Shown piece after piece: positions 34,343 through 55,018 of a stretch of 64,000 nt of DNA. The position numbers and the translations under genes were made by a program. Within the stretch, counting starts at the first letter, position 1; every line of letters starts with the position of its first letter. Origin of the DNA: an uncultured beta proteobacterium (GTDB taxonomy: Bacteria > Pseudomonadota > Gammaproteobacteria > Burkholderiales > SG8-39); contig CAVVGT010000005.1 of the NCBI GenBank assembly GCA_963747775.1, positions 3,148-67,147 on the forward strand, read 5' to 3'. The notes under the pieces were generated by a model. That model was not told where the DNA came from. It made no database searches and was given only the letters and a program-made list of their open reading frames with translations.

Positions 34343-34349
34343 CCGAGCG

Positions 34350-34640
34350 ATGAAAGCAGCACCCAACAAGACCGTCGTGACCGCCCGGCTGCGGAAGTTC
34401 GAACCTGCCGCCGACGGCTACGGCGGCGAACTCGAGCTCGAGGTCATCCGCAACGAGTCCCCCGATCCCGCGGCGGACTTCCTGCAACCGCAGGCGGGCA
34501 AGTCGCTGCGGGCGTTCTACGCGCAGACCGATCCGCCGGCAGCGTCGCTGCCGCTGGGTCGACGGGTCAGGGTCGAGCTGACGTTTCTGGGCGGGCCGAC
34601 CGGCGGACGGGCCGTCGTGCAGAGCATCCGTGCCGAGTAG
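34350..34640 (+). CDS. hypothetical 96-aa protein
   Basis: MKAAPNKTVVTARLRKFEPAADGYGGELELEVI.. has non-low-complexity composition. It is the internal part of ORF 34017..34640. No family recognised. Confidence 0.45.
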   Translation: MKAAPNKTVVTARLRKFEPAADGYGGELELEVIRNESPDPAADFLQPQAGKSLRAFYAQTDPPAASLPLGRRVRVELTFLGGPTGGRAVVQSIRAE

Positions 34641-34651
34641 CCCCCGGCGGC

Positions 34652-36046
34652 TCACCGCTTCACGTTGAGCCTCACCTTGCCTTTCGCGACCGTGATCGCG
34701 CTCAGCGCGACCCCGGTCGGGCTTCCGTCGTGGGCGCGCGACGAAGGCGTGGTCCGGTCGTTGAAGCTCGACTTCTTCAGGGACCCCGGGAAGAGGTCGC
34801 CCGGGTCGCCGCTGTTCTTGGCAAGCTCCAGATCGCGCTTGCCGTCGGCCTGCGCGAGGCCCACTTTGTAGGCCAGCGGGTTGGTGTTGTCCGACCGGGC
34901 TTCGTCGATGTGCCACACCGCGAGCCCGGAGCCCGGCAGCGACGCATCGCGGCCGGTCGCCTGCCGGTTCTCGAGCAGGAAGTACTCCGGTGCGGACTTG
35001 CCGCCGGTCCACACCCACAGGCAGTCCTTCGCATCCTTCTCGAGCGGGTCGAGGGTGTAGCGCGCGGTCTTGGCCGACCGGGGCTTGATCCAACCGAGCT
35101 TGGAGAGGCACCAGCACGACAGTCGGGTGGGTTTCAGGCCGCCGCCGCCCCAGGATCCGCCACCCATGAGGCACCACTGGCCGACGCCCTCCGAGCGATA
35201 GGACGTGTCGTAGAGGTCCGGCAGGCCCAGCACGTGACCGAACTCGTGCGCGAACACGCCGACGCGCCCGTCCTCGGGTTCCGTCGAGTAGGCGTACACC
35301 TTGACGCCCTGGTTGGTGAACACCTGGGGCAAGGTCCACTTGTGCGACCAGATCATGTTGTTGCGCTTCTGCGGATTGGGCTCCGCCTCGGCGCCGCCGC
35401 CCGCATGGATGAGGAAGATCCCGTCGACGAACCCGTCCCCGTCGGTGTCGAAGCGCGCGAGGTTGTTCGTTTTGCAGTATTCCGTCAGCGCATCGAACAG
35501 CAGGCCCGGAGTGTTGCGCGGGTAGCTCATCCCGGTCCCGCTCTCGCCGTTCGTATAGAACGAATAGGGTTGCGGCGCCCGCACGTATCCGACGACCTCG
35601 CCCGTGACCACCAGCTTGCCGTAGGACATCTCGCGGTAGATCGTCGTCATCGAATCCGGATTCGCCGGATCGAACAGCATGCGCTGGAAGTCGGCTGCCG
35701 GGCGGCTTCCCGGGTTGTCGCTGAAGTCGACCATGAGTGCCAGGGCATGCAGCTTGCGGGGGGCCGCCGTGGCGCGCTCCATGCGCGCGGCGCGCAGGGG
35801 GCGGTTGGCGGGGGCGCGATCGAGCGCCAGGCCGGTCGGCGGATAGAACACCCCGTCGTTGAAGCCCGTCGGGCGCTCCACCGTGGCGGCGGCAACCAGG
35901 CCCATGTAAGCCGCCAGGCGGACATCGGCCGTCGACATCGCGCCGCTTTTCTTGATCGCCTGCTGGATGCTCTTCAGCACGGCACTGGAGGGACGGCAGG
36001 CGGTTGGCCCGTCGTCGTAGCGGTGGGACATCGGGTCGCGCATCAT
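34652..36046 (-). CDS. M6 (immune inhibitor A-like) zinc metallopeptidase domain protein, no signal peptide
   Basis: HEFGHVLGLPDLYD (nt ~35234-35275) and ..LALMVDFSDNPG.. / ..GIFLIHAGGGAE.. are typical of M6. Start uncertain: ATG 36046 chosen, and a TTG at 36208 is also open. Confidence 0.75.
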   Translation of the reverse strand: MMRDPMSHRYDDGPTACRPSSAVLKSIQQAIKKSGAMSTADVRLAAYMGLVAAATVERPTGFNDGVFYPPTGLALDRAPANRPLRAARMERATAAPRKLHALALMVDFSDNPGSRPAADFQRMLFDPANPDSMTTIYREMSYGKLVVTGEVVGYVRAPQPYSFYTNGESGTGMSYPRNTPGLLFDALTEYCKTNNLARFDTDGDGFVDGIFLIHAGGGAEAEPNPQKRNNMIWSHKWTLPQVFTNQGVKVYAYSTEPEDGRVGVFAHEFGHVLGLPDLYDTSYRSEGVGQWCLMGGGSWGGGGLKPTRLSCWCLSKLGWIKPRSAKTARYTLDPLEKDAKDCLWVWTGGKSAPEYFLLENRQATGRDASLPGSGLAVWHIDEARSDNTNPLAYKVGLAQADGKRDLELAKNSGDPGDLFPGSLKKSSFNDRTTPSSRAHDGSPTGVALSAITVAKGKVRLNVKR

Positions 36047-36208
36047 GATCTCCGGCGGTGGGTTCGAATGCGACGGGGTCGCACGGCGTGGCTGCAAGTT
36101 CCGCGCGGTGTCGACCGAAGCGGCGACGCCTAGCTTCCGCGCGAGGCGCCACGCATGGCAATAGGCCGAAAGGCTGACCGCGCGGCCGTGCCAACGCTTG
36201 CGGCGCAA

Positions 36209-37669
36209 TCAGGGGAGGAAGTAGTCGACGTAAAGGGACGGCGTTGCGGGATCGACCGCGACGCGCGCGGCGAAGGCCTTCCACAGCCGCTCGTCGGCGT
36301 GCTTGCGTCTCGGGTCGGTCGCCGTCGGGCCTTTGCCGTCGGCGCGCAGCACGCGCCCGCGGGTCTTTTCCAGCAGATGCGGGTACAGCGACTCGGCCGG
36401 CATGTCCCACTTCTTGGTCTTGTTCGCGAATTGCTGGTCGACCGGGATCGCCGCGACGAGCCCGGGATGCGACATCGCCTCCAGGCCGCCGTCCTTGAGC
36501 GTGGCGTTGTGGCTGCCGTGGTGGCCGACCTTGTAGAACACCGTGCGTGCCAGCAGGTCGTTCGCGCGCACTTCGGTGCGCGTGCCGCCGTCAGTGACCT
36601 TCCACGCGAGCTTCTGCCACGACAGCCAGTTGCCGATCTGCGCATCGGCCGCGAAGAGGAGCACCTCTTTCGTCGCCGTGAACTCGAACGCGAGCACCAT
36701 GCTCAGGTTGTTGACGACGTTGTCCAGCTTGAGCGCGAGCTGTTCGGCGGCGAGCAACCACTGATCGTCGATCGTCCGCCAGCGCTCGTCCGGCGCCCGG
36801 TACCGGGCGACGACCGGCGCCAGGGTCGTCTCAGTGCGCGCCCGCGCGTCGCTCCAGTGCAGGCTCGCCTCGAAGGGACACATCGCCTCCGTCCGGGCCG
36901 CGCCTTCGACGGCCGAGTCCTTGCTCGCGGCAACCGCATCGAGCAGGCCTGCGTAGAAGCCCGAGTCGGCGCCGAGGCCGTACATCTCCGAGCCCTTCTT
37001 GCCGAGCAGCTTGCCGAGGAGCTTTTCGTCGCGGGGCGGGGCGAGCACGTAGATGCGCACCCCCGGCAGCCACGCCGGGGCGAGGAGGTCGCCCGGCTCG
37101 CAGTAACGGGGGTCGGGTGCAAGCTCGCGGAGTGCGGCCAGCGCGGCATCGGTTCCACGCACGCCCGCGGCGCTCACCGGCCCGAAGAACGACAGGATCT
37201 GTTCGATCGCCGCCCCGCGCGCGCGGGCCGCCTCGTCCGGCGAGACGGCAAGTCGAGCCAGCGCCCTTCGCGCCCCGTCGAGCTGCAGCGCGGTCGCGCG
37301 GGTCCGCTCGCGGCCCTCCGGATCGTGCGGGTTCTCGGCCCAGGAGAGCCAGACCTCGTCGATCCGCAGCGCCTTGAACTCGTCCCGCGCGTCGAAGAAC
37401 CCGGACAGGTGGTCCCAGTGCGGATGGGTGCCGACAATCGCACTCACGCGGCCGCCGGCTTCCTTTGCGACGTTGGCAGCGATGCGCTGTGCCCACTGCT
37501 TGCTGTCGGGCGTCCCGCCGAGCACGCCGCAGTCGATCAGGATGTGGCTGGGCTTCGGGCCGGTGTAGAACGAGAGGAGGAACGCGTCGCCGATACCCTG
37601 GCGATACATCCGGATGCGTACCCTGGGGCGGCGCCGCGCGGCGCGCTTGCTTGCGACGGTCTCAGCCAT
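36209..37669 (-). CDS. metallo-beta-lactamase-fold hydrolase
   Basis: HPHWDH motif (nt ~37409-37426) after ..GDAFLLSF..ILIDCG.. Start MAETV overlaps the upstream stop (ATGGCTGA). Confidence 0.75.
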   Translation of the reverse strand: MAETVASKRAARRRPRVRIRMYRQGIGDAFLLSFYTGPKPSHILIDCGVLGGTPDSKQWAQRIAANVAKEAGGRVSAIVGTHPHWDHLSGFFDARDEFKALRIDEVWLSWAENPHDPEGRERTRATALQLDGARRALARLAVSPDEAARARGAAIEQILSFFGPVSAAGVRGTDAALAALRELAPDPRYCEPGDLLAPAWLPGVRIYVLAPPRDEKLLGKLLGKKGSEMYGLGADSGFYAGLLDAVAASKDSAVEGAARTEAMCPFEASLHWSDARARTETTLAPVVARYRAPDERWRTIDDQWLLAAEQLALKLDNVVNNLSMVLAFEFTATKEVLLFAADAQIGNWLSWQKLAWKVTDGGTRTEVRANDLLARTVFYKVGHHGSHNATLKDGGLEAMSHPGLVAAIPVDQQFANKTKKWDMPAESLYPHLLEKTRGRVLRADGKGPTATDPRRKHADERLWKAFAARVAVDPATPSLYVDYFLP

Positions 37670-39680
37670 GGTCGGTCTCCGGATTGAACCCATGGAGCTG
37701 CGCGAGCTGCCGCGACGGGTCGGTCTCGTCCAGCGCGCCGAAGTACATGCCCGCGAGCCCCGCGCGCCAGCCGACGCGGAATGCGCGCTCGGCCTCGAGG
37801 CGGGTGTCGCTCCGGGCGTTCTTGCGGATCACGTAATCGATGTCGCCCGAGCGCAGGTCCACGACGATCGTGCACCCGCCGCGAAACATGAACGACCCGG
37901 CGCCCGGCGCGCCGTCCGCTTCGGCGCGCTCCTGCACGATCGACACCAGTCCCTGCGGCACGCCGGGGCCCGCGGGCGAGGACTTGCGGGTGAACTGCAG
38001 CGAGCGCAACTCGAAGGCGGCGTGGCCGGGGCGCAGATCGAGTCCCATGTTCTCGGCGAGGACGTTCCGCTGCTGCGTGTCGAGCGACCGGAGCAGGCGC
38101 TGCACCGAATCGTGCAGCTCGCCGCGCCACTTGCTGAGGTGCGCGAAGATGTCGCGGCGGGGATCCGCGGCGTCGCGATTGTCGAGATACGCGTATTCGT
38201 CCGCGTAAGGCCTCAGGACGAGCGGTCGCCCGCGCAGCAGCGCCCGGACCTCCGCGCTCGGGCGGTCCCACACGAGGTTGTCCACCGCGAGCGACCGCAG
38301 GCCCTTCGGGTAGATCCCCCGCGCGCGGAACGCCTCCACGATCGCGACTCGATAGCCCAGCCGGTCCTGCGGCACGACTTGGATGTCCGCAGTGATGAGC
38401 GCGCGGAGATAGTCGCCGAACGTGAGATCGACCGGCGGGCAGTAGTCGAGCGCGCGCACGCAGATCGTCAGCAGGTGGCCGGCGGCCTTCGCGGCCTCGT
38501 CGGCGAGCCTTTCGACCAGGTCGGGATGCAGCGCGCCTTCCGGCAGCACGCCGCTGCCCCCCGTGGCGATGCGGACGAGATCGACGGTGCGCCGCTCGTA
38601 GATCCTGAGAAACGCATCGAACACGGCGGCGACGAGGATCGCGCCGCGCTCGTGGGGCTCCTGCGTGCGCATGAGCGCCGCCGGATCGGGCTCGAGCCGC
38701 GTCCAGGCCCGCGTCTGCGGATCGACGTGGCCGATCGCGCTGCGTAACGCCCCGTACCGGCCCGTCGCCTGACCGAACTGGACCGCGAGCTCGGCGAGCA
38801 GGTTGCGCGTGCGCAGGTCGCCGCGGGCCCGGGCGATCTGGTGGCGCAGCACGCCGGGCAGCGAAAAATGCTGGAACAGCGCGACCAGGTCGGCGAAGGC
38901 CTCGTGGAACGCGAGCGTGTCCGGATTGCTCGGGTGGAGCAGGGACGGGTGAACCCCGTCGAGGATGGCGTGCGTCGTCTCGTGGGCCACGATGTCCTGG
39001 GACAGGCACGTGAACACGGTGCCGCCGGGATAGACGCGGCCCGGATCGGTGTCGGCGGCGGGGAAGTAGCCGAAGAGCAGCGCCTTGCGCTGCGGATCGT
39101 AGAACGCGTTCTGCTGCCGCAGCGCGTGCGGGTAGACGCGCAGCTGACCGACATAGACGGCTGCGCCGGAGGGCAGCATGTGCGGCGACCACAGCACCCG
39201 GCGCCCGAGGGCGCGCTCGAAGTGCTCGATCGTCCGCATCGCCACCGCGTACACCATCTGCTGGTGGAACTGCGGGTTGGCTTCGGACGGCGCGAGCCCG
39301 TTCTGGGCGAGCAGGGCGCGATCGTCGAGGTCGACGGGCTGGTAGAAACATTCGCTCGCAGGATCGTAATCGATCACGTCCAGGTAGTCACCGCGCGGCC
39401 CGGGCTCGAGCTTTGGCTCCCACGGCACTTCGTAGACGATCTCGTTGATCTCGACGGACTCGAGCTCGGTCGAGAGCTGGGGGTCGAATGCGTATCCGCG
39501 CAGGAGCCGTCGGGTGGGCTGCGGCGGCGCGACGGCGCGCGGCGGCCAATAGCCCTGGGTCGAAGCGCTCCGCGTCGAGGCCGGCTTGCGGGCCTGGCCC
39601 GCGGAGCGGCGCGCGCCCTTGGCCGGATGCGGATTCCCGAGAGCCTTCTTTCGTAGCTTGGACGCTGCCATCGTGCTCAC
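37662..39680 (-). CDS. thermolysin-like (gluzincin, M4-like) zinc metallopeptidase with basic disordered N-terminus, no signal peptide
   Basis: ..QQNAFYDPQRKALLFGY.. + VAHETTHAILD (nt ~38970-38984) + FHEAFADLVA parallels the thermolysin NAFW / HELTH / NEAISD active-site layout. GTG 39680 or ATG 39671 as start. Confidence 0.7.
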   Translation of the reverse strand: MSTMAASKLRKKALGNPHPAKGARRSAGQARKPASTRSASTQGYWPPRAVAPPQPTRRLLRGYAFDPQLSTELESVEINEIVYEVPWEPKLEPGPRGDYLDVIDYDPASECFYQPVDLDDRALLAQNGLAPSEANPQFHQQMVYAVAMRTIEHFERALGRRVLWSPHMLPSGAAVYVGQLRVYPHALRQQNAFYDPQRKALLFGYFPAADTDPGRVYPGGTVFTCLSQDIVAHETTHAILDGVHPSLLHPSNPDTLAFHEAFADLVALFQHFSLPGVLRHQIARARGDLRTRNLLAELAVQFGQATGRYGALRSAIGHVDPQTRAWTRLEPDPAALMRTQEPHERGAILVAAVFDAFLRIYERRTVDLVRIATGGSGVLPEGALHPDLVERLADEAAKAAGHLLTICVRALDYCPPVDLTFGDYLRALITADIQVVPQDRLGYRVAIVEAFRARGIYPKGLRSLAVDNLVWDRPSAEVRALLRGRPLVLRPYADEYAYLDNRDAADPRRDIFAHLSKWRGELHDSVQRLLRSLDTQQRNVLAENMGLDLRPGHAAFELRSLQFTRKSSPAGPGVPQGLVSIVQERAEADGAPGAGSFMFRGGCTIVVDLRSGDIDYVIRKNARSDTRLEAERAFRVGWRAGLAGMYFGALDETDPSRQLAQLHGFNPETDHG

Positions 39681-39778: not shown

Positions 39779-39836
39779 GCTGGGTTCCTTGAGAGAGGGG
39801 GTCGGTCGATGGCGCAGCACGGCGCCGGACGTTCGC

Positions 39837-42800
39837 TCAGCGCTTGCTCTGTATGGCCTCCTGCAGCAGGCTTGTGGCCCTGAGCGGCGGGATCCACACT
39901 TCCAGGTCGCCCGGCTTCTCCTTCTTGGAGCGCGTCGCGTCGAGTGGCAGAAGCGACAGCCGCAGCGTGTATCCCCCCTGCGAGAGGGCGCGTTCGACCC
40001 GGTCGCGGACTTGGGCGGCGGCCCTCTCGTCCTGCGGGAAGAAGTACCGCACGTTCCCCGAGGTCCGCCTGCCGGGGACCTCCTCCGATCCCTTCACGAC
40101 CAGACCGGGAATCTGGCCGAGCGCTTTCGCCACCTGGTCCACGAGTTGCGCATCGCTTCCGTCCGCGTAGTGGAGGAACACCCGCGTCACACGCACGTCG
40201 GCGGGCGCGGTCTTGTCGCCGAGTTGCGCGAGGCGGCGCTCGGCCAGCGTACGCGTGTCGAGACGCATGGTGAGGGAGGCGACCTTGCGGTAATCCGCGA
40301 TTGCGGCGTCGACCCGGCCCATCCGCTGCAGCAGCGATCCGCGCTTGAGGTAGGCCTCGACGTCAGCCTCGACGTCATCCGGACGCAGCTCGATCGCCTT
40401 CTCGTAGTCGGCGAGCGCGGCGTCGTTCTTCCCCTGGGCATCGTGGACGACGGCACGGCGATAGTACATGGCGGGGTCCGCGGGCCGGAGATCGATCGCT
40501 ATGTCGAAGTCTTCCTTCGCGCCGGCCCAGTCGCGGGTCGTCGCGCGCAGGGCGCCGCGCAGCAGGTAGTTCTCGACCCGGCCCGGCCTGAGCTTGATCG
40601 CCATCGTCAAGTCGGCAATCGCGTTGTCATACTCCGGGTCGGCGAGTTCCGCGTACGCCTGTCCCCGCTTCGCGTACACGCGGTCGAGGTCGCTCTCGTG
40701 ATAGTCGGGGATCGCTTTCGTGTAGCGTTCCATCGCCTTCGGGTAGTTCCGCTCGGCGGCGAACGCGTCCGCTTCCGCGACCAGCAAGATCGCCACCTCG
40801 GCGCGCCCGCGCGCAAGTTGCTGTTCCGCCATCCACCACCACCAGCCGAGCGCCAGCGCCAGGCTGCAGACGACCGCCAACGCGACGGCCGCCCAGCCCC
40901 GCGTCCGGGCCGCCTTGCTGCCACGCATCTCGCCGAGGCCGATGAACTCGAGCTCCTGCGCGTTCAGATCGGCGCCGCGGGAGTCGCGCCATGCTTTGGC
41001 TGCTTGGAGCTGCGCGCCGGAGAGCAGCCCGCCGGGGTCCCGCTTGCTCTTCTCCCAGTCCGCGCGATACGCGCCCAGCAGTTCGCGCCAGCGCAGGAAC
41101 TCGCGGTCGGCTTCGACCCATTCGCGCAGTCGCGGCCATTGCTGGGCGAGCACCGGGTGCACGAGCTCGGCTGCCGGCGCGTCGGACTCGGCGGTGCAGA
41201 GCACGACGAGCCGCGACGTCGCGAGTTGCTCGAGCAGGGCGGCGACGGCTTCGCCGGGCGCCGCCTTCGACTCGAGCTCGGACCGGAGCGCGCGCCGGAT
41301 CCGGTCCGCGGCCGGATGCGGACCGACGTTCACGAGCCGCGGCAGGACGCGCTGCGCGAGCGCGCGCTCCGCGTCGTTGAGGCCGTCCAGGGCCGCGTCG
41401 GCGCGCGCGACGAGTAGCCCGCGCACACCGCCCATGTCGTCGTAGGCCGCATTGGTGAGAAAGCCTTCCCGGCGCCGCACGTACAGGCTCTGCAGCAACA
41501 GCTGGAGGAGCGGCAGGCGAAACGCCTCGGTGCCGAGATCCTCGATGATGCGGTCGACGAGGCCGGGTTCGAACGTGAGTCCGGCGCGTGCCGTCGGTTT
41601 CTCGATCGCCTGGCGCAGCTCGTCGCGCGTAAGATCGCCGAGTCGGACGACGCCCGCGTCGTCCGCGGGCACCGGCAGCGGCGTGCCCGCGAGCCGGCGG
41701 ACGAAGTCCGAGCGCGCCGCGATCACCGTCACGATGTCCGGCCGTTTGCGCTCGAGTGCGGCGACGCGCTCGAGGAAGCGCGTTCGCAGGCGGGCGTCGA
41801 AGCTCGGCGCAAACACTTTCTCGAGCTCGTCGATGAAGAGCACGTGGCGCGCGTCGGCGCCCGCGCCGGGCGCGAGGCGGGCCAGGACGCGCGTCAGGCT
41901 GGCGACCGGATCGGTGCCGGGCACGATGCGCTCGAGCCGGCGGGGCGCATCCGCGGCGGCCTGGCTGCGCCGCAGCTCGGAGAACGCGCCGGCCATCACC
42001 AGCGAGCGCTTGCCGCTGCCGCTCGGCCCGAGCACCCAGACGCGTGTTCGGGAGCGCAGGTGGTCGAGCAGCCGCGCGCGCAGCTCGTTGCGTCCGAAGA
42101 AGAATGCAGCGTCGTGCTCCTGGAACCGCTCCAGCGGCCGGAAGGGGCTGCTGACCGCCACCGCGGTCCCGCGGGTCGTCCAGGTCAGCGTGTGCTCCTG
42201 ATCGACGCCCTCGGGCGGCGCGCCTTCGACTGTCGGCTCCGGCCGCGCGGGCGCGAGCGCGGCGATGCGCGCGACGAGCGGGTCGAGCTGGTTCGCCGAT
42301 GCGCCTTCGCGCAGGTCGAGGATCTCCTCGCCGAGCCCTGGCGTCGGTGCCGGGCTCGCGCTCGGCAGCAGCACCTTGAACGTCACGAAATTGCGGCTCG
42401 CACGCACTGCCGCGACCACGTGTTGGAGTCCCTCCGATTGCGCCGGCGTGAGGCCGCCCGGTCCGATGAAGACGACGAGCGCCCTGGAATGGAAAAGCTG
42501 CTGCTCGCTGCGGCGCTGCCACTCGGGCGGCGGCACCGCGTCCAGCTCGTCCACGAAGGCGCGCAGATCGGCGCGCTTCAGCGCCGCCGCGAACGCCTCG
42601 GCGGCAGCGCTGTCCGCGGTCGCGGTCACGATGTATGCGTCGTAACTGGCGTATCGCGCCGTGAGGTCGTACTGGGCCGCGACCTGCGGCGGGGTGTCGC
42701 CGGCGTCTTGCGCGAGCGCGGCGAGCCGGGTCCCGGGTGCGGCGAGATAGGTCAATGCGTCGGCGAGGCGGTGGAATGCGGTGGCGATGCGCTCCCGCTG

Positions 42801-47155: not shown

Positions 47156-48097
47156 TCAGAAGCGGAGCATTCGCCGCAGCGTGCTGGCGAAACTCTTCTG
47201 GCGCAGGTACTTCGTGATCGAGTGCCGCCACGCGCCGTCGTTCTGGACCGCGATGTCCTCGACCGCCGACTTGCCGCCTTTGCGGTAGTCGCTCGCGAGT
47301 ATGGGGTCGAACCCGCAGACGGGATCCAGCCGGTCGAACAGGTTGACCCAGTCGCCGGCGACCCGCTCGTGCGGGAACCCGTCCGCGCGACTCCAGCCCG
47401 GCTGCAGCTTGTCCTGGATCTCGTCGAGGCCGAGCGGGCTGCCGAGCGTGATGAATCCGTCCACCGCCGCGCAATCGGTGACTCGCTTGAGGCAGTCGTA
47501 GGCGATGACCGTGCCCATGCTGTGGGAGACGACGATGTGCGGTCGGGTGACTGCGGGCGCGCAGACCGCGTCCGCAAAACGCCGCCGGATCGTCTGCTGG
47601 ATGCGCACCGCGGGGGTGCGGCCCGGCGGTGCGAACTCCACGTCGAACAGGTAATGATGCACGTCGCTCAAGTACGCTTCGAGGACGCGTTTCTTGATGA
47701 ACCAGGGCAGCGGCACGCGCTCGAGCGCACCTTGCGGCGCTGCGGGCGCGGGGACGGGCGCGGCGGTCTCGAGCTCCGCGTCCGAGAGCGTCGTCATTTT
47801 CGCGCGCAGGGCCGCGATGAACGCCGCCTCCTCCGCGCTCTGCGGCCGGGGGGGCGAGGCGTTCCCGCCGCCATCGATCGCCGCGGCGCTGTTCTCGAGC
47901 ACGCCTTCGTAGGCCGTGAGGTCGTCCTCCGGCTTCGCGTAGAGGAGATCGGCCCAGTAGACCAGCGAGCTGCTCACGCCGAGATCGCCCAAGGGCAGCG
48001 GCTCGGCGGCCTCCGCCAGGGCGTCCCGCCAGATGCGCAGGAGATCGTCCGCCGGCGGCTTGTTCGCGATTCCGTGAATGAAGGTGACGTGCGGCAT
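47156..48097 (-). CDS. alpha/beta hydrolase (lipase/esterase-like), no signal peptide
   Basis: VTFIHGI.. and nucleophile elbow VSHSMGT (GxSxG). 313 aa. Confidence 0.65.
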   Translation of the reverse strand: MPHVTFIHGIANKPPADDLLRIWRDALAEAAEPLPLGDLGVSSSLVYWADLLYAKPEDDLTAYEGVLENSAAAIDGGGNASPPRPQSAEEAAFIAALRAKMTTLSDAELETAAPVPAPAAPQGALERVPLPWFIKKRVLEAYLSDVHHYLFDVEFAPPGRTPAVRIQQTIRRRFADAVCAPAVTRPHIVVSHSMGTVIAYDCLKRVTDCAAVDGFITLGSPLGLDEIQDKLQPGWSRADGFPHERVAGDWVNLFDRLDPVCGFDPILASDYRKGGKSAVEDIAVQNDGAWRHSITKYLRQKSFASTLRRMLRF

Positions 48098-48157: not shown

Positions 48158-48772
48158 CTAGAAGTCGTAGGTCGGGTCTTCGCCCAGGTCTGGAATCCTC
48201 GCGACGTAGCCGGTCGCGCCGAAGTCCAGCGGGATGGCTGCCTCGTACCCGGGGAGGCCGACCTCCTTGCGCAGCGCGTTGAGCCGGTTCATCCAGCCTT
48301 TCAGGAAGACCGCGAGGTCCGGGTTCTGCCGGGCGAGACGACGGTAATAGGCCTCGCGCGCGTCGCAGTAGGCCGCGATTCCCCGGCCGATGTCGCAGGC
48401 TGCGGCCGCTCGCTCCGTCTGCGGCCCGAAGTCGCCGTCCACGCCGCATCCGACCGCCGACTGCAGGAACCGCACTGCGCGCCCGACCCCCATGTTGACC
48501 GCGGTATCGAACTGCACGAGATCGAGTTGCTGCCGCAGGAGATCGCATCGCGGCGGCAGCCAATAGCCGCTCTCGTAGATCGCCTGCACTTCGCGGTCCT
48601 CGATCAGCTTGACGTCCCGCCGGGCGAATTGCTGCCGCGCGCGCCACGCATCGTAGACCTTCTGCGTCACGCCCTTGTTCGTCCGTCCGCCCGGATCGGC
48701 GGGATGATCTACAAAACCGCCCTCCCACCGCAGAATGAAGGGCAGCGAGCGCTCGAAGGCGGGGGACGGCAT
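48158..48772 (-). CDS. glycoside hydrolase family 108 muramidase with C-terminal peptidoglycan-binding domain, no signal peptide
   Basis: ..FILRWEGGFVDHPADPGGRTNKGVTQ.. (GH108 catalytic region) and ..VDGDFGPQT.. (PG-binding). Start MPSPAF within ORF 48158..49081. Confidence 0.75.
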   Translation of the reverse strand: MPSPAFERSLPFILRWEGGFVDHPADPGGRTNKGVTQKVYDAWRARQQFARRDVKLIEDREVQAIYESGYWLPPRCDLLRQQLDLVQFDTAVNMGVGRAVRFLQSAVGCGVDGDFGPQTERAAAACDIGRGIAAYCDAREAYYRRLARQNPDLAVFLKGWMNRLNALRKEVGLPGYEAAIPLDFGATGYVARIPDLGEDPTYDF

Positions 48773-49008: not shown

Positions 49009-49767
49009 ATGAGAAAGACTTTGGCAGCATCCGCGCGCGACTACGTCCTGAAGCTGGACCTTCCCTTTGCGCCGCCCGCATTCGAGGCGGTGACCGCGAT
49101 GGCGTTTTCGGACCAGCGCGAGGCGGTCGCCGTCGGTGCGCAGCTCGCGGAGTTCACCCCTGCGGTGCCGGCCGGCGTGCGCGGCGCCATCGCCGACAGC
49201 ATCCTGCTCGCGCAGCTCGCCGCCAACAAGGTCACCACCCAGACGGAGGACGTCTTCCGCTGGTACGACAAGTACATCGAGGTGCTCCAGAACATCGGCT
49301 GGCAGGTCCGGGACCTCGATTTCCAGGCGCAGCAGGTGAGCGACCAGGACGCCTGGGTGCACAAGGAGATCATCCCGGTGCTCGCGCTGCTGCTCGGGCC
49401 GCAGGCCGCGGCCGCCTCGATCGTGATCGCGGTGCTGAACGGTCTCCAGAATATGGATTCGAGCTCCCCCTGGATCACGCTCTTCGACCAGTCGAGCCAG
49501 CACGCGCGCGGCGCGAAGTTCCAAGTGAGCTACGTCGATGCCGACGCGCAGGGATCCCCGGAGATCTCGCTCCTCTGCTTCGGCATCCAGGCGGACCGGA
49601 CCATCACGCAGGTGCTGTTCTTCAAGACCTCCGCGCAGAGCGCCGAGGTGAAGAAGGCCTCGGCCAAGCTGGCCGTCAGCATGGAGCGCCTGAACTCGGC
49701 GAAGGACGCCCTTGCCGGCCGCGTGCAGCCCTTCATTGCGGACTACGTGAAGAACATCGACATCTGA
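49009..49767 (+). CDS. hypothetical 252-aa protein (no family recognised), first gene of the plus-strand unit
   Basis: MRKTLAASARDYVLKLDLPF.. with a GGAGGG RBS. One hydrophobic segment (IIPVLALLLGPQAAAASIVIAVL). 14 nt upstream of the next gene. Confidence 0.55.
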   Translation: MRKTLAASARDYVLKLDLPFAPPAFEAVTAMAFSDQREAVAVGAQLAEFTPAVPAGVRGAIADSILLAQLAANKVTTQTEDVFRWYDKYIEVLQNIGWQVRDLDFQAQQVSDQDAWVHKEIIPVLALLLGPQAAAASIVIAVLNGLQNMDSSSPWITLFDQSSQHARGAKFQVSYVDADAQGSPEISLLCFGIQADRTITQVLFFKTSAQSAEVKKASAKLAVSMERLNSAKDALAGRVQPFIADYVKNIDI

Positions 49768-49781
49768 GGCGCGGGCCGCGC

Positions 49782-51736
49782 ATGAAGCCGCACGCCTTCA
49801 TCGCCATGCCGTTCGGCACCAAGCCCGGCCACGACGGGCAGCCGATCGATTTCGACCGGGTGTACGCGGAACTGATCAAGCCCGCGCTGGAGGCGGCGGG
49901 CTGGGAGGTGTTCCGGGCCGATGAGGAGCTCCGCGCCGGCGACATCCGCATCGACATGTTCCAGGAGCTGCTGGTCGCCGACCTGGTGGTCGCCGATTTG
50001 ACGCTGAACAACCCCAACGTCTGGTACGAGCTCGGCGTGCGCCACGCGCTGCGCGCACGGGGCGTGGTGCTCGTGCAAGGGCCGCGTCCGACCCAGCCGT
50101 TCGACATCTACACCGACCGCAAGCTGAACTACCGGCTGAAGGACGGCGCGCCCGACGCCGCGCACGTGCAGGCCGATCGCGACGTGCTGGCCGCCATGGC
50201 GCGCGCCACGCTGGAGGCGGCCACCGCGCGGCCGGTCAGCCCCGTCTATGCGCTGCTCGATCACCTGCGCGAGCCCACGTGGCGGGAGCTGCTGCTCGCC
50301 GAGCGAAACGAGTTCAGCCAGGCCTATGAAGCGTGGCGCAGTCGCATGGAGATCGCGCGGCAGAAGAACCGGCCGGGCGACATCCTGGTGCTTGCGGATG
50401 AGACGCCCACCCGCGCGCTGTGGCTGGAGGCCAAGCGCGCCGCGGCGAACGGCCTGCTCAAACTGAGGCAGTTCGATTTTGCCCTGGAGCAGTTCGAGGC
50501 CGCGCTGGCGATCGACCCCGACGACAAGCCGAGCCGCGAGAAGAAGGCGGTGTGCCTCGGCCGCCTCGGCCGTTACGAGGAAGCGCGCGAGTGGACGCGC
50601 CAGCTGACCGATGACTATCCGCGGGACGCCGAGGCCTGGGCGTTGGCCGGCCGCGTCGAGAAGGACGACTGGATCAGCCGCTGGCGGCGCGCCGGCGACA
50701 CGCCGGCGCAGATGCGGGCTGCGGCCGCGGCCGAGGAGGCGAGCCTGCGGGAGGCGATCGAGCCGTACCACAAGGCCTTCATCACCGATCCAAGCCACTA
50801 CTTTTCCGGCATCAACTCCCTCACGCTGCACGTGCTGCAAAAGCACCTGGGGGGCGCACCGGACGCGACCGTCGTCGACAACCTGATCGGCGGCGTGCTC
50901 TGGGCCAGCCTGACCGCTCAGAAGCGCGACCCCAAGGACTACTGGGCGCGCGCGAGCTACGCGGAGCTCTGCCTGCTCGTGAATCCGAAGGAAGCCGTGA
51001 TCCGCGAGTTCCGCGCCGCGGTGGCCGCGGCCAATCGCGACTGGTTCGCGCTCGATTCCACGCTCCAGACGTTGAAGCTGTTGCGCGACCTGGAGTTTCG
51101 CCCCGATGAAACCGGCGCGGCGCTGGAGATCGTGGAGCGCGAAATCGCTCGCGCGAACCCGCCGTTCCTGCCGCGGCAGGTGCTCCTGTTCTCCGGCCAC
51201 ATGGTCGACGCGCCCGGACCGCGCGATGCCGCGCTTTCCGGCCGACAAGGAGCCGGTCGCCGCGCAGAAGATCGCCGCGGCGCTCGATCAGCTCGGTGCG
51301 GGCGCGGGCGACCTCGCCCTGACGCAAGGCGCGGCCGGCGGCGACCTGCTGTTCGTCGAAGCCTGCCTGCAGCGCGGCGTGCGCTGCATGCTGCTGTTCC
51401 CCTTCGAGGAACCCAAGTTCATCGAGGAGTCCCTGCTGGCGTCCAAGGACGGCGAGCGCTGGCGCGAGCGCTACTTCGCGGTCAAGGCGCAACTGAAGGA
51501 CGCGCCGCGCGATCATGCCGGCCGAGCTGGGGCCGCTGCCGAAGGGCGCCAGCGCGTACGAGCGCTGCAACCTGTGGCTGCTGTACACCGCGCTCGCATG
51601 GGGCGTGGACAAGGTGCGCTTCGTCTGCCTGTGGAACGGCGGCGGCGGCGATGGCCCCGGCGGGACCGCGCACATGTACAACGAGGTCAAGCGCCGGACC
51701 GGGCGGGTCACCTGGATCGACACCCGGAAGCTGTAG
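49782..51736 (+). pseudogene. TIR/nucleoside-deoxyribosyltransferase-like N-domain - DUF4071 (TPR-like) - C-terminal Rossmann-like domain protein, interrupted by two +1 frameshifts (~51213 and ~51510)
   Basis: Frame 0: MKPHAFIAMPFG..HYFSGINSLTLHVL..LLFSGHMVDAPG. It continues in ORF 51106..51744 (..PRFPADKEP..TQGAAGGDLLFVEAC..) and then ORF 51515..51736 (MPAELGPLPKG..CLWNGGGGDGPGGTAHM..). Confidence 0.65.
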
Positions 51737-51740
51737 GCAG

Positions 51741-53465
51741 CTAACGGCCGGACGCCGCGTGCGGCGCCGGAGTCGCCGCGTCGGCAGCGCGCGCCGGGCG
51801 CGGCGCGACCGCGTCGAGCAGCGTCGCCATCAGGCCGCGGATCTCGGCGGCGGTGCTGCGCTCCACCGCGAGCAGGCGCGCGGTCGGCGCCGGCGAGCGG
51901 CGGTTGGGCGTGCCGGGCCCGACCGCCGACCAGAGCACGCGCAGCGTCGCCTCGAGGAAACCGCGATCGGTGGTGCCGTCGACCACGAATACCACGCGTG
52001 CGAGCTCGATCGCCTGGAGCAGCTCGCCGAGCTCATACACGCAGCCGCGGTTGGCGGGCGCGAAGCTGCGCAGGTCCATCAGGACGACGTCGCTCTCCTC
52101 GACGAGCCGGTGCATCGTCATCTGCCAGGTGTCGGCGTGGCAGAAGAACTCGTTCACGCGATAGCGGCCGTCGGGGTCGCGCTCCTGGTCGATCGCCGCG
52201 ATCCGCCGCTCGAGGTCGGGGCGGCCGGTGACGAAGCGCCCGGCGAGCTCGCCGCTCGCGAACTCGAGGAACTCGTGCGGCTCCACGGTGCTCGTGACGA
52301 GATCCGGGCCGGCGATCATCGACACGCTCCCGAGGCGCAGCCAGTGCGCGCGCAGCACGTCGAAGAACCGTTCCGAGCGGCTGCCGAGCGCGAAAACGCG
52401 AAGCAGCAGAAGCCGGCGTGGTGCCGGCGCCGGGCGGCGCCGCAGCAATGCGAAGGCGACGATCGTCGCGAGCTTGTAGGCGAGGAACGCGGCGAGCCCC
52501 GTCGCCGCCCAGGTCGCGCCTTCGAAGGCGAAGGCGACGGACTGGCTGATGCCGAAGAACAGGAACACCGTATCGATCGTGAGCGATTGGTCGGAGAGCC
52601 GCTTGCGCTGGTAGCGCCGCCCGAGCCGGCGCAGCACGATCCAGCCGCCGAGGGCGAAGAGCGCGAAGCCGGACACGAGCGTGTACACGAAGATCTCCGT
52701 GCCGCCGAGGCCGAGGAGCGCGCCGGCCTCGACCGCCGCGCGCATCCGGTCGTCGCTTGCGCCCACCACTTTGAGCGCGAGCAAGCTGCCGCCCAGGGCC
52801 AGAACGGCGAAGGTCACGACCAGGGGTCCGACGGCGCGGATCGGACGGGCAAGAAAGAGAAAGAGCAGCGCAGTCTCCGCGCCGTTGGTGATGACCCAGA
52901 AGACCGCCGGATCGTACCAACGGAGATCCGGGCTGCGCGCGAGCGCGATGGCCGCAAGCAGCGCGAACACGCCGCCGTATGCGCCGAGCAGCTTGAGGCG
53001 CGCTGCGCGCGTCGTGCCGGCCACGATTCCGGCCGCGATGACCGCCGGCCAAAGGAAAGTCCAGAAGAACGTCGCGAGCTTCACCGGCCCGACGCCTGCG
53101 TCGACGGTGAAAACGGTCCACGGCACCGACATCACGCAGGCGTACGCCGCCCCGCCGAGACCGTAGATGGCCGCGGCGTGCCAGGGTCCGCGCATCACGT
53201 CCCGGATCCCGGGTGCTTCATCCGCGGCGGAGCGTGCGTCGGCGAACGCGATCTTCAGCGCGTTGGCCGGTCCCGCCGCCGCCGTGCGCACTTTAGCCGT
53301 CGCGTCCCCGCCGCGCGCGGCGGTGTTCATCGACCGCAGCACCGCGCGGCGGTACAGCCGCAGCAGCAGCAGCGAGACGGGAAGCGCGAGGAGCGCGCCG
53401 CCGAGCAGCACCGACGGCAGTTCGCCCGTGATCGCGAGCGTCGTGGGGTCCGTCGTCGCGCTCAT
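51741..53465 (-). CDS. 574-aa polytopic membrane protein (about 10 TM) with ~220-aa cytoplasmic-type C-terminal domain
   Basis: Start MSATTDP overlaps the TIR gene stop (ATGA). There are many hydrophobic helices. The C-terminal ..LLLLRVFALGSRSERFF..VVLMDLRSF..VVFVVDGTTD.. suggests an alpha/beta domain. No family recognised. Confidence 0.6.
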   Translation of the reverse strand: MSATTDPTTLAITGELPSVLLGGALLALPVSLLLLRLYRRAVLRSMNTAARGGDATAKVRTAAAGPANALKIAFADARSAADEAPGIRDVMRGPWHAAAIYGLGGAAYACVMSVPWTVFTVDAGVGPVKLATFFWTFLWPAVIAAGIVAGTTRAARLKLLGAYGGVFALLAAIALARSPDLRWYDPAVFWVITNGAETALLFLFLARPIRAVGPLVVTFAVLALGGSLLALKVVGASDDRMRAAVEAGALLGLGGTEIFVYTLVSGFALFALGGWIVLRRLGRRYQRKRLSDQSLTIDTVFLFFGISQSVAFAFEGATWAATGLAAFLAYKLATIVAFALLRRRPAPAPRRLLLLRVFALGSRSERFFDVLRAHWLRLGSVSMIAGPDLVTSTVEPHEFLEFASGELAGRFVTGRPDLERRIAAIDQERDPDGRYRVNEFFCHADTWQMTMHRLVEESDVVLMDLRSFAPANRGCVYELGELLQAIELARVVFVVDGTTDRGFLEATLRVLWSAVGPGTPNRRSPAPTARLLAVERSTAAEIRGLMATLLDAVAPRPARAADAATPAPHAASGR

Positions 53466-55018
53466 CGGGCGAGCGTGAAATCCACGAGCTCGAAGGTGGC
53501 GAGCTCCTGCGGCACGTTGCGCTCGTAGGTGCGCGCGTCGACCTTGACGAAGCGCTTCGCCGCGGGCGCATACCAGAGGGTGACGATCGAGTGCAGCGGG
53601 ATGCGGTTGATGAACGTGCTCCCGCGCCCTTCGGCCACGACCTTGATCGCATCGAACGTGCCGGCCGGCACGGTCACCTGCTCGCGCCCCGCGATCCGCA
53701 TCGCCATCTCGATGGTGGCATCGGAGGAGAGCTGGCGCTTCACCGTGGGCAGCGACGCGCCGTCGTCGAGTCGGTAGAACGCCTGCAGGTAGGGCGCGAG
53801 ATCGGGCGGCGCGTATTCGAGACCAGAGTGGCCGGAAAAGCGTGGCTCGCGCGCGACCACGATTCGGCTCTGGTAGTCGGGGCGGTTCGACACGCGCAGC
53901 AATTCGCCGACGCCGGCCTCGCTCACCGTGTCGACCCGGTAGGTCATCCGGGCGACCTCGGCACGGCGGAAGCCGTCGACGTAGCGATAGGTCCAGGTGT
54001 CGCCCGGCGCGGGCATCAGCGGCGGGCGCGCCGCGACGGCGACCTTCGGCGGTGCAGGCTCGGCGGCCGGAGGCTTCTGGGCCTCCGCGGCCGGTGCCGC
54101 GGGCGCGGGGGCGGGCGGCGCGATGGCGGCCTGCGGTGCGGGCGGCGCGACCGGTTTCGGCTGCGCCTTGGGCGCCTGCCGCCGCTTCTCCTCGTCGGCC
54201 TTCCGCGCGGCCTCCGCGGCGGCGCGCGCGCGCTCGGACTCGGCCTGCGCGATGCGCCGCTGGTCTTCCCGACGCTGGTCTTCCTCCTGCGCGCGGCGCG
54301 CGGACTCGGCCTCCGTCGCCCGAGCCTTCTCGTCGATGCTCCGTTGCTTCGCATCGAGCTCGGCCTGGCGCTTTGCGGCCGTCTCCTCGGTGCGGCGGCG
54401 CGCCTCGTCGAATGCTCTCTGCCGCGAGTCCAGCTCGACGGCGCGGCGGTCGACGTCGTCGAAGTAGCGCATGACCCCGAAGGTGCCGGCGGCGACGATT
54501 GCAACGCCGAGGACGGCCGGAACGAGCCGGCGCAACCACATCCGCCAGTCGGCGCCCGCCGTGCCGCGCTCGACGCGGATCGCCGCCAGCGTCTGCGGCG
54601 GCGTGACCCCGGGCGTGAGCAACGCCCTCAGGTCGGAGACGAGCTGGCGGAAGCCGGGCGAGGTCTGGTCGCCGTGGTAGCCGACGAGGTTGGCGGCGTG
54701 GATACTGCGAAAGCCCATGGGCGGCTCGACCGCGTCGATCAGCACCGGCACGAGGATGCCGCGCTCGAGCCCTTCGTTCGCCTCGTCGCGGACCCAGCGC
54801 GAGGTGATCGAGGCTTTCGACCACAGCACCAGGACGCAGTCCGACTTCTTGATCTCGGACTCGATGACGCCGGCGAAGGTCTTGCCGGCCTGCAGCTTGT
54901 GGTCCCACCACACCGCCCACCCCAGCGCCTCGAGATCGGCCGCGATCTCGCGCGCGCGGTCGCGGTCCTCGCTGGCGTAGCTGAGGAAGATGCGAGGCAC
55001 GACCGCGCCGCCGGTCAA
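53462..55018 (-). CDS. TIR domain protein with TM helix, charged coiled-coil, Pro/Ala-rich linker and C-terminal beta-rich domain
   Basis: RIFLSYASEDRDRAREIAADLEALGWAVWWD..CVLVLWSKASITSRWVRDEA (TIR, conserved Glu ~aa 79). TM LVPAVLGVAIVAAGTFGVM (aa ~165-183). Confidence 0.8.
   Translation of the reverse strand: MTGGAVVPRIFLSYASEDRDRAREIAADLEALGWAVWWDHKLQAGKTFAGVIESEIKKSDCVLVLWSKASITSRWVRDEANEGLERGILVPVLIDAVEPPMGFRSIHAANLVGYHGDQTSPGFRQLVSDLRALLTPGVTPPQTLAAIRVERGTAGADWRMWLRRLVPAVLGVAIVAAGTFGVMRYFDDVDRRAVELDSRQRAFDEARRRTEETAAKRQAELDAKQRSIDEKARATEAESARRAQEEDQRREDQRRIAQAESERARAAAEAARKADEEKRRQAPKAQPKPVAPPAPQAAIAPPAPAPAAPAAEAQKPPAAEPAPPKVAVAARPPLMPAPGDTWTYRYVDGFRRAEVARMTYRVDTVSEAGVGELLRVSNRPDYQSRIVVAREPRFSGHSGLEYAPPDLAPYLQAFYRLDDGASLPTVKRQLSSDATIEMAMRIAGREQVTVPAGTFDAIKVVAEGRGSTFINRIPLHSIVTLWYAPAAKRFVKVDARTYERNVPQELATFELVDFTLAR

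Follow-up and report, generated by a model that had tools for sequence, protein, structure and literature searches.

Among bacterial STAND/NLR-like sensors, most of those characterised are soluble proteins that recognise phage proteins in the cytoplasm, and variable effectors around a constant core usually mark an immune system. For such sensors the reference systems used here are Avs/AVAST (Gao et al.; Lee et al., Nature 2026, PMC13581612). The nSTAND1 clade was named by Kaur et al. in 2021 (PMC8195603); in the searched text of the Kaur/Burroughs/Iyer/Aravind papers (eLife 2020, PMC7159879; 2021, PMC8195603), nSTAND1 NTPases and TPR-S-type sensors are known in conflict systems, the effectors listed include TIR, trypsin and caspase/CHAT domains, and 'inactive MinD/ParA-like' domains appear among the components. 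On the effector side, the DUF4062/NIR domain is a validated TIR-like NADase in phage defence, found in Swarozyc, Vulcan, Vesta, Evangelion and Avs2-NIR; the described NIR systems are either single proteins, in which NIR is joined to an auxiliary, HEAT or STAND part, or NIR accompanied by an alkaline phosphatase (bioRxiv 10.64898/2026.05.01.722283, 10.64898/2026.09.04.749371, 10.64898/2026.06.25.731849). Protease-activated MBL pro-nuclease pairs occur in HamMAB, Avs1, Lamassu, DRT variants and canu, and further nuclease clades with 'other diverse' protease families have been noted (Tuck et al., Science 2026, PMC12799240). Here we compare these systems with a 20.7-kb block of genes (34350–55018) from an uncultured soil beta proteobacterium. 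The window, to which all positions refer, is the whole analysed stretch of 64,000 nucleotides (contig CAVVGT010000005.1, 3,148–67,147, forward strand).

We read the block as a composite conflict/defence island, fixed in the chromosome and assembled from at least five separable small modules (g5–g4, g3–g2, g7–g6, g9–g10 and g13–g12), with g5–g4 as an autonomous core system. The probability of this reading is, in our estimate, about 55%, and each individual mechanistic step is held with less confidence than the composite nature of the island. Genes were called from codon-position GC rather than from open reading frame (ORF) length, since the window is about 70% G+C. This gave 12 genes (g1–g10, g12, g13) in 34652–55018, in place of the 13–14 counted in an initial annotation made by a model from the letters of the window. 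The three transcription units recognised there are present: g8-g7-g6-g5-g4-g3-g2-g1 on the minus strand (48772 to 34652), g9-g10 on the plus strand (49009–51736) and g13-g12 on the minus strand (55018 to 51741), with start/stop overlaps of 4–8 nt (GTGA between g5 and g4, ATGGCTGA between g3 and g2, ATGA between g13 and g12). For g5 (586 aa), g3 (669 aa) and g6 (531 aa), a 132,118-bp public contig already carries called proteins of the same length and sequence, and the 1271-aa call for g4 is consistent with full-length homologs at 96%–82% identity. Scans of all island proteins with Pfam, NCBIfam and PADLOC-DB v2 recovered essentially every domain named in the initial annotation and support its view that the genes are of conflict/immunity type. 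No complete named system was assigned by these three resources, which bears out the earlier claim on the very point for which a PADLOC search had been recommended; PADLOC-DB v2 matches are domain-level only (LmuA/Avs1a for the g2 N-terminus, PDC-M28B for the ParA part of g4, ThsB/TIR for g13). All domain families in the island are already described, and DUF4062 NADases, nSTAND1 proteins and MBL/protease pairs now have described relatives. A promoter/terminator scan returned 0 promoters and fewer terminators than in shuffled sequences, and was uninformative.

The evidence for an autonomous core comes from the conservation of the g5–g4 pair. One genome per GTDB species was scanned with an alignment of g4 homologs, yielding 560 relatives, and the best 80 loci were retained; neighbours in these loci were identified by tblastn with all island proteins, followed by clustering of all ORFs. 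Directly upstream of the g4-like gene stands a g5 homolog in 60 loci and a ~390-aa relative in 13 more (at least 73 of 80), and this partner gene typically ends 4 nt inside the g4-like gene. The pair spans ten or more phyla, with hosts in the Beta-, Gamma-, Alpha- and Deltaproteobacteria, Actinomycetota, Acidobacteriota, Gemmatimonadota, Verrucomicrobiota, Chloroflexota, Cyanobacteriota and Bacteroidota and the archaeon Methanothrix. Distant loci keep only two pieces, the first ~310 residues of g4 and the last ~260 residues of g5, and around these the rest varies. The three partner forms are homologous by hhalign profile–profile comparison (E 2.7e-26 for the TIR-bearing form, 3.5e-43 for the short form), and the effector position is swapped: the window type has DUF4062/NIR there, the 390-aa (cluster-4) type a canonical TIR that retains its Glu. 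Short partner forms (340–410 aa) carry no fused effector; just upstream of them lies a gene for a caspase (Thiomargarita), a CHAT protein (Aetokthonos) or a trypsin-like protease (Methanothrix). The C-terminus of the g4 family varies likewise, bearing TPR, WD40, FGS or PD40 repeats or nothing (>1700 homologs). Such exchange of effectors and sensors around an unchanging core is what one would expect of an immune or conflict system. We found no description of a g5–g4-type pair in the literature on KGGVGR, PDC-M28 and TPR-S/DUF4071; neither the obligate pairing of the 260-aa domain with the KGGVGR ParA-like domain nor the conserved transmembrane (TM) helix with an outward-facing sensor in the g4 family was found described in the literature searched or in PADLOC.

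The partner protein g5 (43649..45409, minus strand; 586 aa) is predicted to consist of a DUF4062/NIR domain, a degenerate TIR and a conserved C-terminal domain. Its AlphaFold2 model (pLDDT 84.5) has three alpha/beta domains and retrieves TIR folds only in Foldseek (SARM1, TIR-STING, SPARTA TIR-APAZ). The N-terminal TIR-like NADase domain (residues 1–171, 44897–45409) matches Pfam DUF4062 (PF13271) at 6e-19 over model positions 1–82 of 82 and contains conserved Glu91/Glu93 within SITEAEY; across 38 homologs T90 and E93 never vary, and conservation of E91 is at least 90%. Because a full-length DUF4062 domain with the conserved Glu region is kept, NAD+ hydrolysis would be expected of g5. The middle domain (residues 190–320, 44450–44842) aligns with the canonical TIR of the 390-aa partner form in profile–profile comparison, and is read as a degenerate TIR on that ground. 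The alpha/beta 'adaptor' domain (residues 325–586, 43652–44437) folds confidently when modelled alone (pLDDT 87.9, pTM 0.85) and has no significant structural relative: Foldseek against PDB and BFVD returned nothing below E 0.03, the best values (0.035 and 0.07) reflecting a weak G-domain/flavodoxin-like likeness, and a PDB sequence search gave no match. The family of this domain comprises 434 clusters (exhaustive phmmer, 1.84 billion representatives), in which it is always C-terminal, in long (~560–620 aa) or short (~340–430 aa) proteins. No full-length g5 homolog was found on PLSDB plasmids.

The putative receptor g4 (39837..43652, minus strand; 1271 aa) carries, from the N-terminus, a ParA-like domain, a TIR, an nSTAND1 NTPase, a TM helix, TPR repeats and a C-terminal domain. 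The ParA-like domain (residues 1–310, 42723–43652; CbiA/ParA) belongs to the NCBIfam family 'KGGVGR-motif variant AAA ATPase' (NF047398, 5.7e-43; 147 bits against a cutoff of 90). Its P-loop reads invariantly KGGVGRS in the homolog alignment, with Arg replacing the catalytic Lys of KGGxGK[ST]. The TIR (residues 343–448, 42309–42626; TIR_2 6.5e-8) has no conserved catalytic Glu across homologs, and for this reason we read it as a scaffold. The NTPase (residues 503–873, 41034–42146) matches nSTAND1 (PF20703) at 4.8e-86 and 290 bits over positions 1–378 of the 379-position model, with intact Walker A (GPSGSGKRS) and Walker B (LFIDELE) motifs. The TM helix (residues 919–937, 40842–40898) is followed by TPR repeats (residues ~949–1130, 40263–40808) and a conserved C-terminal domain (residues 1140–1271, 39840–40235). 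Apart from PDC-M28B, PADLOC gave only a weak mad8 and a TPR match, NCBIfam only KGGVGR, ParA-like and TPR families, and a PDB sequence search only TPR proteins. A hydrophobic helix after the NTPase is present in 109 of 120 g4 homologs irrespective of the C-terminal repeat type. In the 15 residues flanking it, Lys plus Arg average 5.4 on the N-side versus 2.4 on the C-side (97 single-helix proteins); the N-flank is the richer in 87 of the 97 and the reverse holds in 4 (Wilcoxon p=2.7e-16). By the positive-inside rule this helix would leave ParA–TIR–STAND in the cytoplasm and place the repeats in the periplasm. The predicted periplasmic location of the sensor repeats is consistent with the TolB-type PD40 propellers of some g4 homologs.

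How far the core is tied to the other genes decides between a composite island and a single machine. The initial annotation had treated the block as a unit, and it may be proposed that all 20.7 kb form one integrated novel defence system under the control of the 1271-aa STAND protein, with the peptidases, MBL hydrolase, lipase-like enzyme and muramidase all serving as abortive effectors inside the cell. Eight genes are indeed co-directional with short gaps and overlaps, the whole block is co-inherited in all close relatives, an array in Nitrosospira holds g10-, g9-, g6-, g5- and g4-like genes in one direction, and g6, g7, g8 and g10 homologs adjoin g5–g4 in five distant loci. Against this, in the 78 loci beyond close relatives homologs of g1, g2, g3, g12 and g13 do not stand beside g4, save one weak TIR match. 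The g3–g2 and g7–g6 pairs are self-contained on plasmids that lack g4 and g5 (30 plasmids for g3–g2, an Agrobacterium plasmid for g7–g6), and g12 homologs occur without an upstream g13. No conserved third gene beside the pair emerged from the ORF clustering or from a Pfam census of 129 flanking proteins in 35 loci, in which the top counts were integrase 4, TPR-S 3, CHAT 3 and trypsin 3. A PADLOC census of the neighbours found scattered known defence genes (PglX, methyltransferase, CHAT, PD-T4-3/6, MkoA, phospholipase effectors and WYL). Of the neighbours whose linkage to the 1271-aa protein was to be checked, the g5-like partner is conserved; M6, zincin and MBL neighbours are seen in close relatives only, and enrichment in defence genes is modest. 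A single integrated 20.7-kb system is therefore unlikely.

Within the composite island, the translationally coupled core pair, which we read as a membrane-spanning NLR-like system, may work as follows. A single TM helix would hold g4 in the membrane with its N-terminus in the cytoplasm and its C-terminus outside, so that the TPR repeats and the small C-terminal domain face the periplasm and could sense a periplasmic cue. On activation, the nSTAND1 NTPase would oligomerise on the cytoplasmic side, gathering the non-catalytic TIR and the ParA-like KGGVGRS domain. The clustered platform might then recruit g5, whose C-terminal domain would bind the ParA-like domain, with a TIR–TIR contact through the degenerate TIR. 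Clustered g5 DUF4062/NIR domains would switch on and deplete NAD+, leading to cell arrest or death. What the sequences show is the domain content, the conservation of the pair, the swapping of effectors and sensors, the TM helix with its charge bias and the plasmid contexts of the pairs; every signalling step, the trigger, the NADase activity of g5 and the substrate of g2 we infer. The neighbouring pairs would act as independent or loosely coupled, parallel or accessory arms: g3 possibly cleaving g2; TPR-S proteins bearing trypsin or NDT/TIR-like heads; and g7–g6 as a hydrolase with a TPR-S–trypsin partner, the g8 muramidase alongside.

A periplasmic cue admits a different purpose. The pair and its companions could serve envelope surveillance, or regulated cell death and kin discrimination, in socially or multicellularly growing bacteria, triggered in the periplasm by cell-wall damage or contact-dependent attack and not by viruses. 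The predicted periplasmic position of the g4 repeats fits this idea, as do the similar TIR–TM–periplasmic-domain layout of g13, the cell-wall- and membrane-directed enzymes nearby (the GH108 protein g8, and g7) and the stable, syntenic Streptomyces locus beside pcrA and a RipC-like hydrolase. Hosts are also rich in filamentous, aggregating and floc-forming groups (Streptomyces, Anaerolineae, cyanobacteria, Thiomargarita, Methanothrix, Accumulibacter, Zoogloea), in agreement with the link to multicellularity in the searched text of Kaur et al. (PMC8195603). Conversely, all experimentally tested DUF4062/NIR proteins act in anti-phage defence, and effector swapping and occasional defence-gene neighbours fit immunity equally well. 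We regard a non-antiviral role as rather improbable on present evidence and nevertheless as a serious alternative, and the two functions are not mutually exclusive. As to the Streptomyces loci themselves, in six species (L012, L013, L015, L017, L018 and L026; ~8190–12880) the pair has the same chromosomal surroundings, with pcrA and a RipC-like NlpC/P60 peptidoglycan hydrolase as its neighbours. These copies were also considered as an FxSxx-COOH peptide system, which was rejected given those two neighbours and the lack of Fxs families.

Several further observations weigh against a composite defence island with an immune core. The island genes and the g5–g4 homologs are known from sequence alone. 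The modelled fold of the g5 C-terminal domain yields no functional clue, and the Lys-to-Arg exchange in the ParA P-loop may mean that this domain is structural only. A periplasmic sensor is unusual among phage-protein-sensing STANDs. Among the 129 neighbours of the Pfam census no defence family dominates, and known defence genes are only modestly enriched; the Streptomyces context, unusual for a defence gene, suggests a stable housekeeping or developmental locus more than a mobile element of defence. The pair was not found on PLSDB plasmids and is nearly absent from viral contigs, of which only 6 carry the ParA-like part. As for the accessory modules, g2 matches Avs1a/LmuA over ~70–90 N-terminal residues only, the Avs1a score being 22.8 bits against a curated cutoff of 420, so any kinship to the gated nucleases is tentative.

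The g3–g2 module is the best documented of the neighbouring pairs. The M4/thermolysin-like zincin g3 (37662..39671, minus strand; 669 aa) carries HETTH...EAFAD and matches no Pfam family, and its stop overlaps the g2 start by 8 nt. The MBL-fold hydrolase g2 (36209..37669, minus strand; 486 aa) has the motif HPHWDH and is a candidate protease-activated pro-enzyme. Pfam Lactamase_B covers only its N-terminus (2e-5), where PADLOC also reports LmuA (3.7e-9, residues 17–108) and Avs1a (1.5e-4) and NCBIfam Avs1a (3.4e-5). PDB sequence searches with g3 and g2 gave no match. In a tblastn survey of PLSDB, 65 plasmids had a g3 homolog and 30 a g2 homolog; among the hosts are Rhizobium, Sinorhizobium, Agrobacterium, Hymenobacter, Deinococcus, Methylorubrum, Paraburkholderia and Bradyrhizobium. 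In all 30 g2 records a g3-like gene lies at most 1.7 kb upstream on the same strand (two confirmed by tblastn), and none of these g3–g2 plasmids has g4 or g5. The annotation of one plasmid g3 homolog reads 'peptidase M4'. What precedes g3 on the plasmids varies, from a patatin to an S8 peptidase fused to g3 or an AAA ATPase; in five inspected loci the neighbours include CBASS, SIR2, Hachiman-like DUF1837 with a helicase, DUF4238, ThiF and integrases. The closest known parallel appears to be the protease-activated MBL pro-nuclease pair, and by this analogy g3–g2 probably works in the same way, with g1 as an extra protease. The M6 (immune inhibitor A-like) metallopeptidase g1 (34652..36208, minus strand; likely start ATG 36046, giving 464 aa) bears HEFGH and matches Peptidase_M6 at 3.6e-30 and TIGR03296 at 8.3e-64. 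It is seen beside g3–g2 in close relatives only, as is the linkage of g1, g2 and g3 to g4. An M4-zincin/MBL pair was not found described in the literature searched or in PADLOC.

The second pair lies upstream of g5. Protein g6 (45549..47144, minus strand; 531 aa) joins TPR-S/MAP3K_TRAF_bd (formerly DUF4071) repeats to a trypsin-like protease (Trypsin_2, 2e-20) with an intact H/D/S triad. Its partner g7 (47156..48097, minus strand; 313 aa) resembles an alpha/beta-hydrolase, with SHSMG and weak Pfam matches. The two occur in the same order (53% and 36% identity), alone, on the Agrobacterium fabrum plasmid pAtl-11c; g6 recurs next to g5–g4 in three loci (L022, L025, L031), together with g7 in the first of these, a Lysobacterales metagenome-assembled genome (MAG), and a Gemmatimonadales MAG (L004) has g8 and g7 beside the pair. 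The adjacent g8 (48158..48772, minus strand; 204 aa) is a GH108 muramidase with PG_binding_3 (Pfam 1.7e-29 and 3.9e-12). On Sinorhizobium meliloti pCpl (L113, 2536–14151) a g7 homolog stands between, on one side, a NucA-like DNA/RNA endonuclease and a hypothetical gene and, on the other, PAS, CHAT and S8-peptidase genes, an arrangement resembling the NucA–peptidase conflict system of Kaur et al. 2020.

Such hydrolases invite another explanation. Characterised M4, M6 and GH108 enzymes act outside the cytoplasm, and the nearest phage homologs of g8 are ordinary endolysins (36–48% identity, also without signal peptides). The M6, M4-like, GH108, lipase-like and trypsin-like proteins could accordingly be exported toxins or lytic enzymes directed against competitors, or the remnant of a prophage lysis module, lying beside the STAND gene by chance. 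The extracytoplasmic habit of the characterised families and the endolysin kinship speak for it. The absence of signal peptides, claimed earlier, holds on inspection: no N-terminal hydrophobic segment or signal peptide was found in g1, g2, g3, g6, g7 or g8. Nor does the window contain genes for a secretion system, a holin, an integrase, a tRNA or phage structural proteins; g3 and a cytoplasmic MBL enzyme form a tight pair in plasmid defence islands, and g6 and g7 pair with an intracellular TPR-S sensor architecture. Export or lysis is thus very unlikely in our view, and a role of the soluble hydrolases as intracellular abortive effectors is a plausible hypothesis.

On the plus strand, g9 (49009..49767; 252 aa) has one central hydrophobic helix, no Pfam, PADLOC or NCBIfam match and hence no family assignment; it co-occurs with g10 (49782..51736; 653 aa when repaired). 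The latter combines a TIR/NDT-like N-terminus (PADLOC TIR effector, 2.3e-6) with TPR-S repeats (7.5e-20) and a C-terminal GGAxGGD-type domain. Its frame is shifted by two 1-nt insertions, an extra G at 51216 in CCCGGACC and an extra C at 51510 in CGCGCGATC, as seen in the frame plot, the three-frame translation and DNA alignment. Both are missing from five relatives (L001, L002, L086, L087, L089), and g10 is intact in all of these except L001, whose copy has five other 1-nt indels, which suggests error-prone long-read assemblies in this MAG group. We regard g10 as a recent pseudogene or an assembly error. The same lesions, with the lack of mobile-element signatures, could be taken to mean that the whole region is a decaying, non-functional remnant. 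The breaks in g10 are confined to this window; all other island genes keep long intact frames, strong codon-position GC bias and intact catalytic motifs, relatives at 81–94% identity retain the whole block, and the assembly-error-type indels of related MAGs indicate that the g10 lesions may be errors too. Decay of the region is scarcely probable. In Nitrosospira multiformis a g9-like gene again lies near a g10-like gene, with one gene between. That locus (strain Nl18, L031, 2488–15094) encodes in one direction a g10-like protein, a 272-aa PD40/TolB-repeat protein and g9-, g6-, g5- and g4-like proteins, the last of 1697 aa with beta-propeller repeats; of the distant loci it matches the island most fully and, in a cultured strain, it offers a practical experimental model.

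The last unit pairs two membrane proteins. Protein g13 (53462..55018, minus strand; 518 aa; alternative starts 55000 and 54913) has a canonical TIR (TIR_2, 1.8e-24) with a catalytic-type Glu in WVRDEA, a TM helix, a linker and a DUF3108-like domain (weak matches: DUF3108_like 0.00072, DUF3108 0.004). Residues ~200–330 form a long coiled segment rich in Glu, Arg and Ala and then a Pro/Ala-rich stretch, with a TolA (TIGR02794) match of 5e-5, which implies that a putative linker spans the periplasm from the TM helix to the DUF3108-like domain. The layout of g4 is thus repeated on a smaller scale: TIR, one TM helix, TolA-like linker, DUF3108-like domain. The start of g12 (51741..53465, minus strand; 574 aa) overlaps the g13 stop by ATGA; it is a polytopic membrane protein with at least 7 TM helices and a soluble C-terminal domain, and matches no family in Pfam, PADLOC or NCBIfam. 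Its homologs at 35–55% identity are stand-alone, with no g13 or other TIR gene upstream and two of them beside integrase-like genes, so that a conserved g13–g12 pair has no support beyond close relatives. On two metagenome contigs (L094, L097) a methyltransferase-like ORF and an integrase-like ORF, the latter with an N-terminus of Arm type, lie downstream of the g12-like gene, which suggests that the g12 family travels alone on integrative elements.

In its own lineage the block is a stably inherited chromosomal cluster. The nearest genomes, two 'uncultured beta proteobacterium' MAGs (L001, L002), carry it in full synteny (g4 protein identity 90% and 81%; DNA 89–94%), and it is syntenic at 81–94% DNA identity across several related MAGs and metagenome contigs, including several from soil or sediment. 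The judgement that it is not a fresh acquisition is upheld by this synteny, and the G+C of the island (0.68–0.73) equals that of its flanks (0.67–0.72), as had been reported. Origin from a mobile element found no support: the window has no tRNA, Rfam match, integrase or transposase, and among viral contigs only the 6 carry the ParA-like part. The left border of the shared block falls within 34308..34651, where blastn homology to both MAGs starts at 34308–34310; it then jumps to 29003–29540, and the intervening Liv-type ABC operon (29541–34307) is missing from both relatives. This operon, directly left of the island as the initial annotation had it, encodes a periplasmic binding protein, two permeases and an ATPase; at the border the relatives carry ~1.4 kb of different DNA in its place, an indel. 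The leftmost 34 kb of the window hold ordinary catabolic and transport genes. On the right, synteny reaches 59460 in one contig (L089) and ends at 55109 in another (L086). The 'haem-peroxidase cluster' placed there was not recovered, as Pfam gave no match at 1e-4 for the genes in 55130–61358. Besides a protein that looks catalase-like by eye (ORF at 55130), this flank encodes one of 432 aa containing a hydrophobic segment and one of 716 aa in which CxxCH haem-binding motifs occur. At 55–57 kb the G+C falls to 0.645, the lowest value save at the window start.

Taken further, the composite-island reading allows a broader and more tentative proposal, which we consider less likely than not. The g5–g4-type pair might constitute a distinct, as yet unnamed, broad innate-immune or cell-death system of bacteria and Methanothrix, in which an NLR-like receptor spanning the membrane monitors the space beyond the cytoplasm by TPR, WD40 or lectin-type repeats in the periplasm and signals inward through the STAND NTPase, a scaffold TIR and the ParA-like/adaptor interface to interchangeable death effectors (NIR/TIR NADases, caspase/CHAT, trypsin). 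The M4-zincin/MBL pair would add a third protease class, metalloproteases, controlling a pro-enzyme in defence islands. If so, a widespread family with periplasmic sensor repeats would put the sensing of infection or damage at the envelope and offer a testable bacterial analogue of the 'ectodomain-TM-TIR' receptor design with Toll-like receptor topology. The obligate ParA-like/adaptor interface is a candidate new device for coupling sensors to swappable effectors and could be used to find further effectors, and the zincin–MBL pair, found on dozens of rhizobial, Hymenobacter and Deinococcus plasmids, would extend the principle of protease-activated pro-nucleases to metalloproteases. The locus is valuable as a compact, intact set of candidates.

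Compared with the systems named at the outset, g4 comes near to Avs/AVAST in its effector-side N-terminus, its central STAND NTPase with Walker A and B motifs, its C-terminal repeat sensor (TPR, WD40, FGS) and the swapping of sensors within the family (PMC13581612). It departs from them in an NTPase of the nSTAND1 clade, with no Avs model matched in PADLOC or NCBIfam; in the TM helix between NTPase and sensor; in the invariant KGGVGR ParA-like domain ahead of the TIR; and in a TIR lacking the conserved catalytic Glu, the likely effector residing on the separate, obligately linked g5. With the nSTAND1 systems of Kaur et al. the island and its related loci share a g4 NTPase matching at 290 bits, TIR, trypsin and caspase/CHAT effectors and a bias to multicellular or aggregating bacteria. 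Those papers, in the text searched, describe nSTAND1 with FGS, EADs and DGRs, and not the pairing of a 260-aa domain with a KGGVGR ParA-like domain, the TM helix or DUF4062. EAD-based coupling as in the Kaur model was rejected, no EAD exceeding threshold in the island (EAD2 in g3 only, E 0.0068, 17.1 bits against a cutoff of 23.8).

Like the NIR systems, g5 has a full-length N-terminal DUF4062 with a conserved Glu region, and its expected output would be NAD+ hydrolysis and abortive infection. Unlike them, it joins NIR in one chain to a degenerate TIR and a novel domain, and its gene is coupled to that of a membrane STAND/ParA-like protein; neither a phosphatase nor a HEAT match was found in Pfam or NCBIfam, so g5 differs from the Swarozyc/Vulcan/Vesta/Evangelion architecture. 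Thoeris is likewise distinct: g13 gives weak ThsB matches only (6.8e-5 and weaker), and the island encodes no ThsA-like (SIR2/Macro-SLOG) protein. The g3–g2 module resembles the pairs of Tuck et al. in that the MBL gene is obligately adjacent to the protease gene (30 of 30 plasmid records, an 8-nt overlap in the window), lies in defence islands beside varying sensor and effector genes, and has an N-terminus weakly matching LmuA and Avs1a models. It differs in that the protease is an M4-like zincin (HExxH...E) instead of a trypsin or caspase and is encoded upstream, not downstream, of the MBL gene; g2 is moreover longer (486 aa) and scores far below the Avs1a cutoff.

The nearest PADLOC entry for the core pair is the candidate PDC-M28, itself uncharacterised. 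Its B model matches the ParA-like domain of g4 at 87 bits and stand-alone short forms at 83–92 bits, whereas no PADLOC model matches g5 or any partner form, and the A+B system was not detected. From ParA/MinD ATPases the g4 domain is set apart by KGGVGRS, without the catalytic P-loop Lys of KGGxGK[ST]. The most distant comparison is with animal Toll-like receptors. Polarity is opposite in g4, where the TIR is N-terminal to the TM helix, STAND and ParA-like domains are inserted, and the ectodomains share no homology; by analogy, however, g4 and independently g13 appear to follow the same design, in which a repeat-built ectodomain is joined by one TM helix to a cytoplasmic TIR that signals by assembly.

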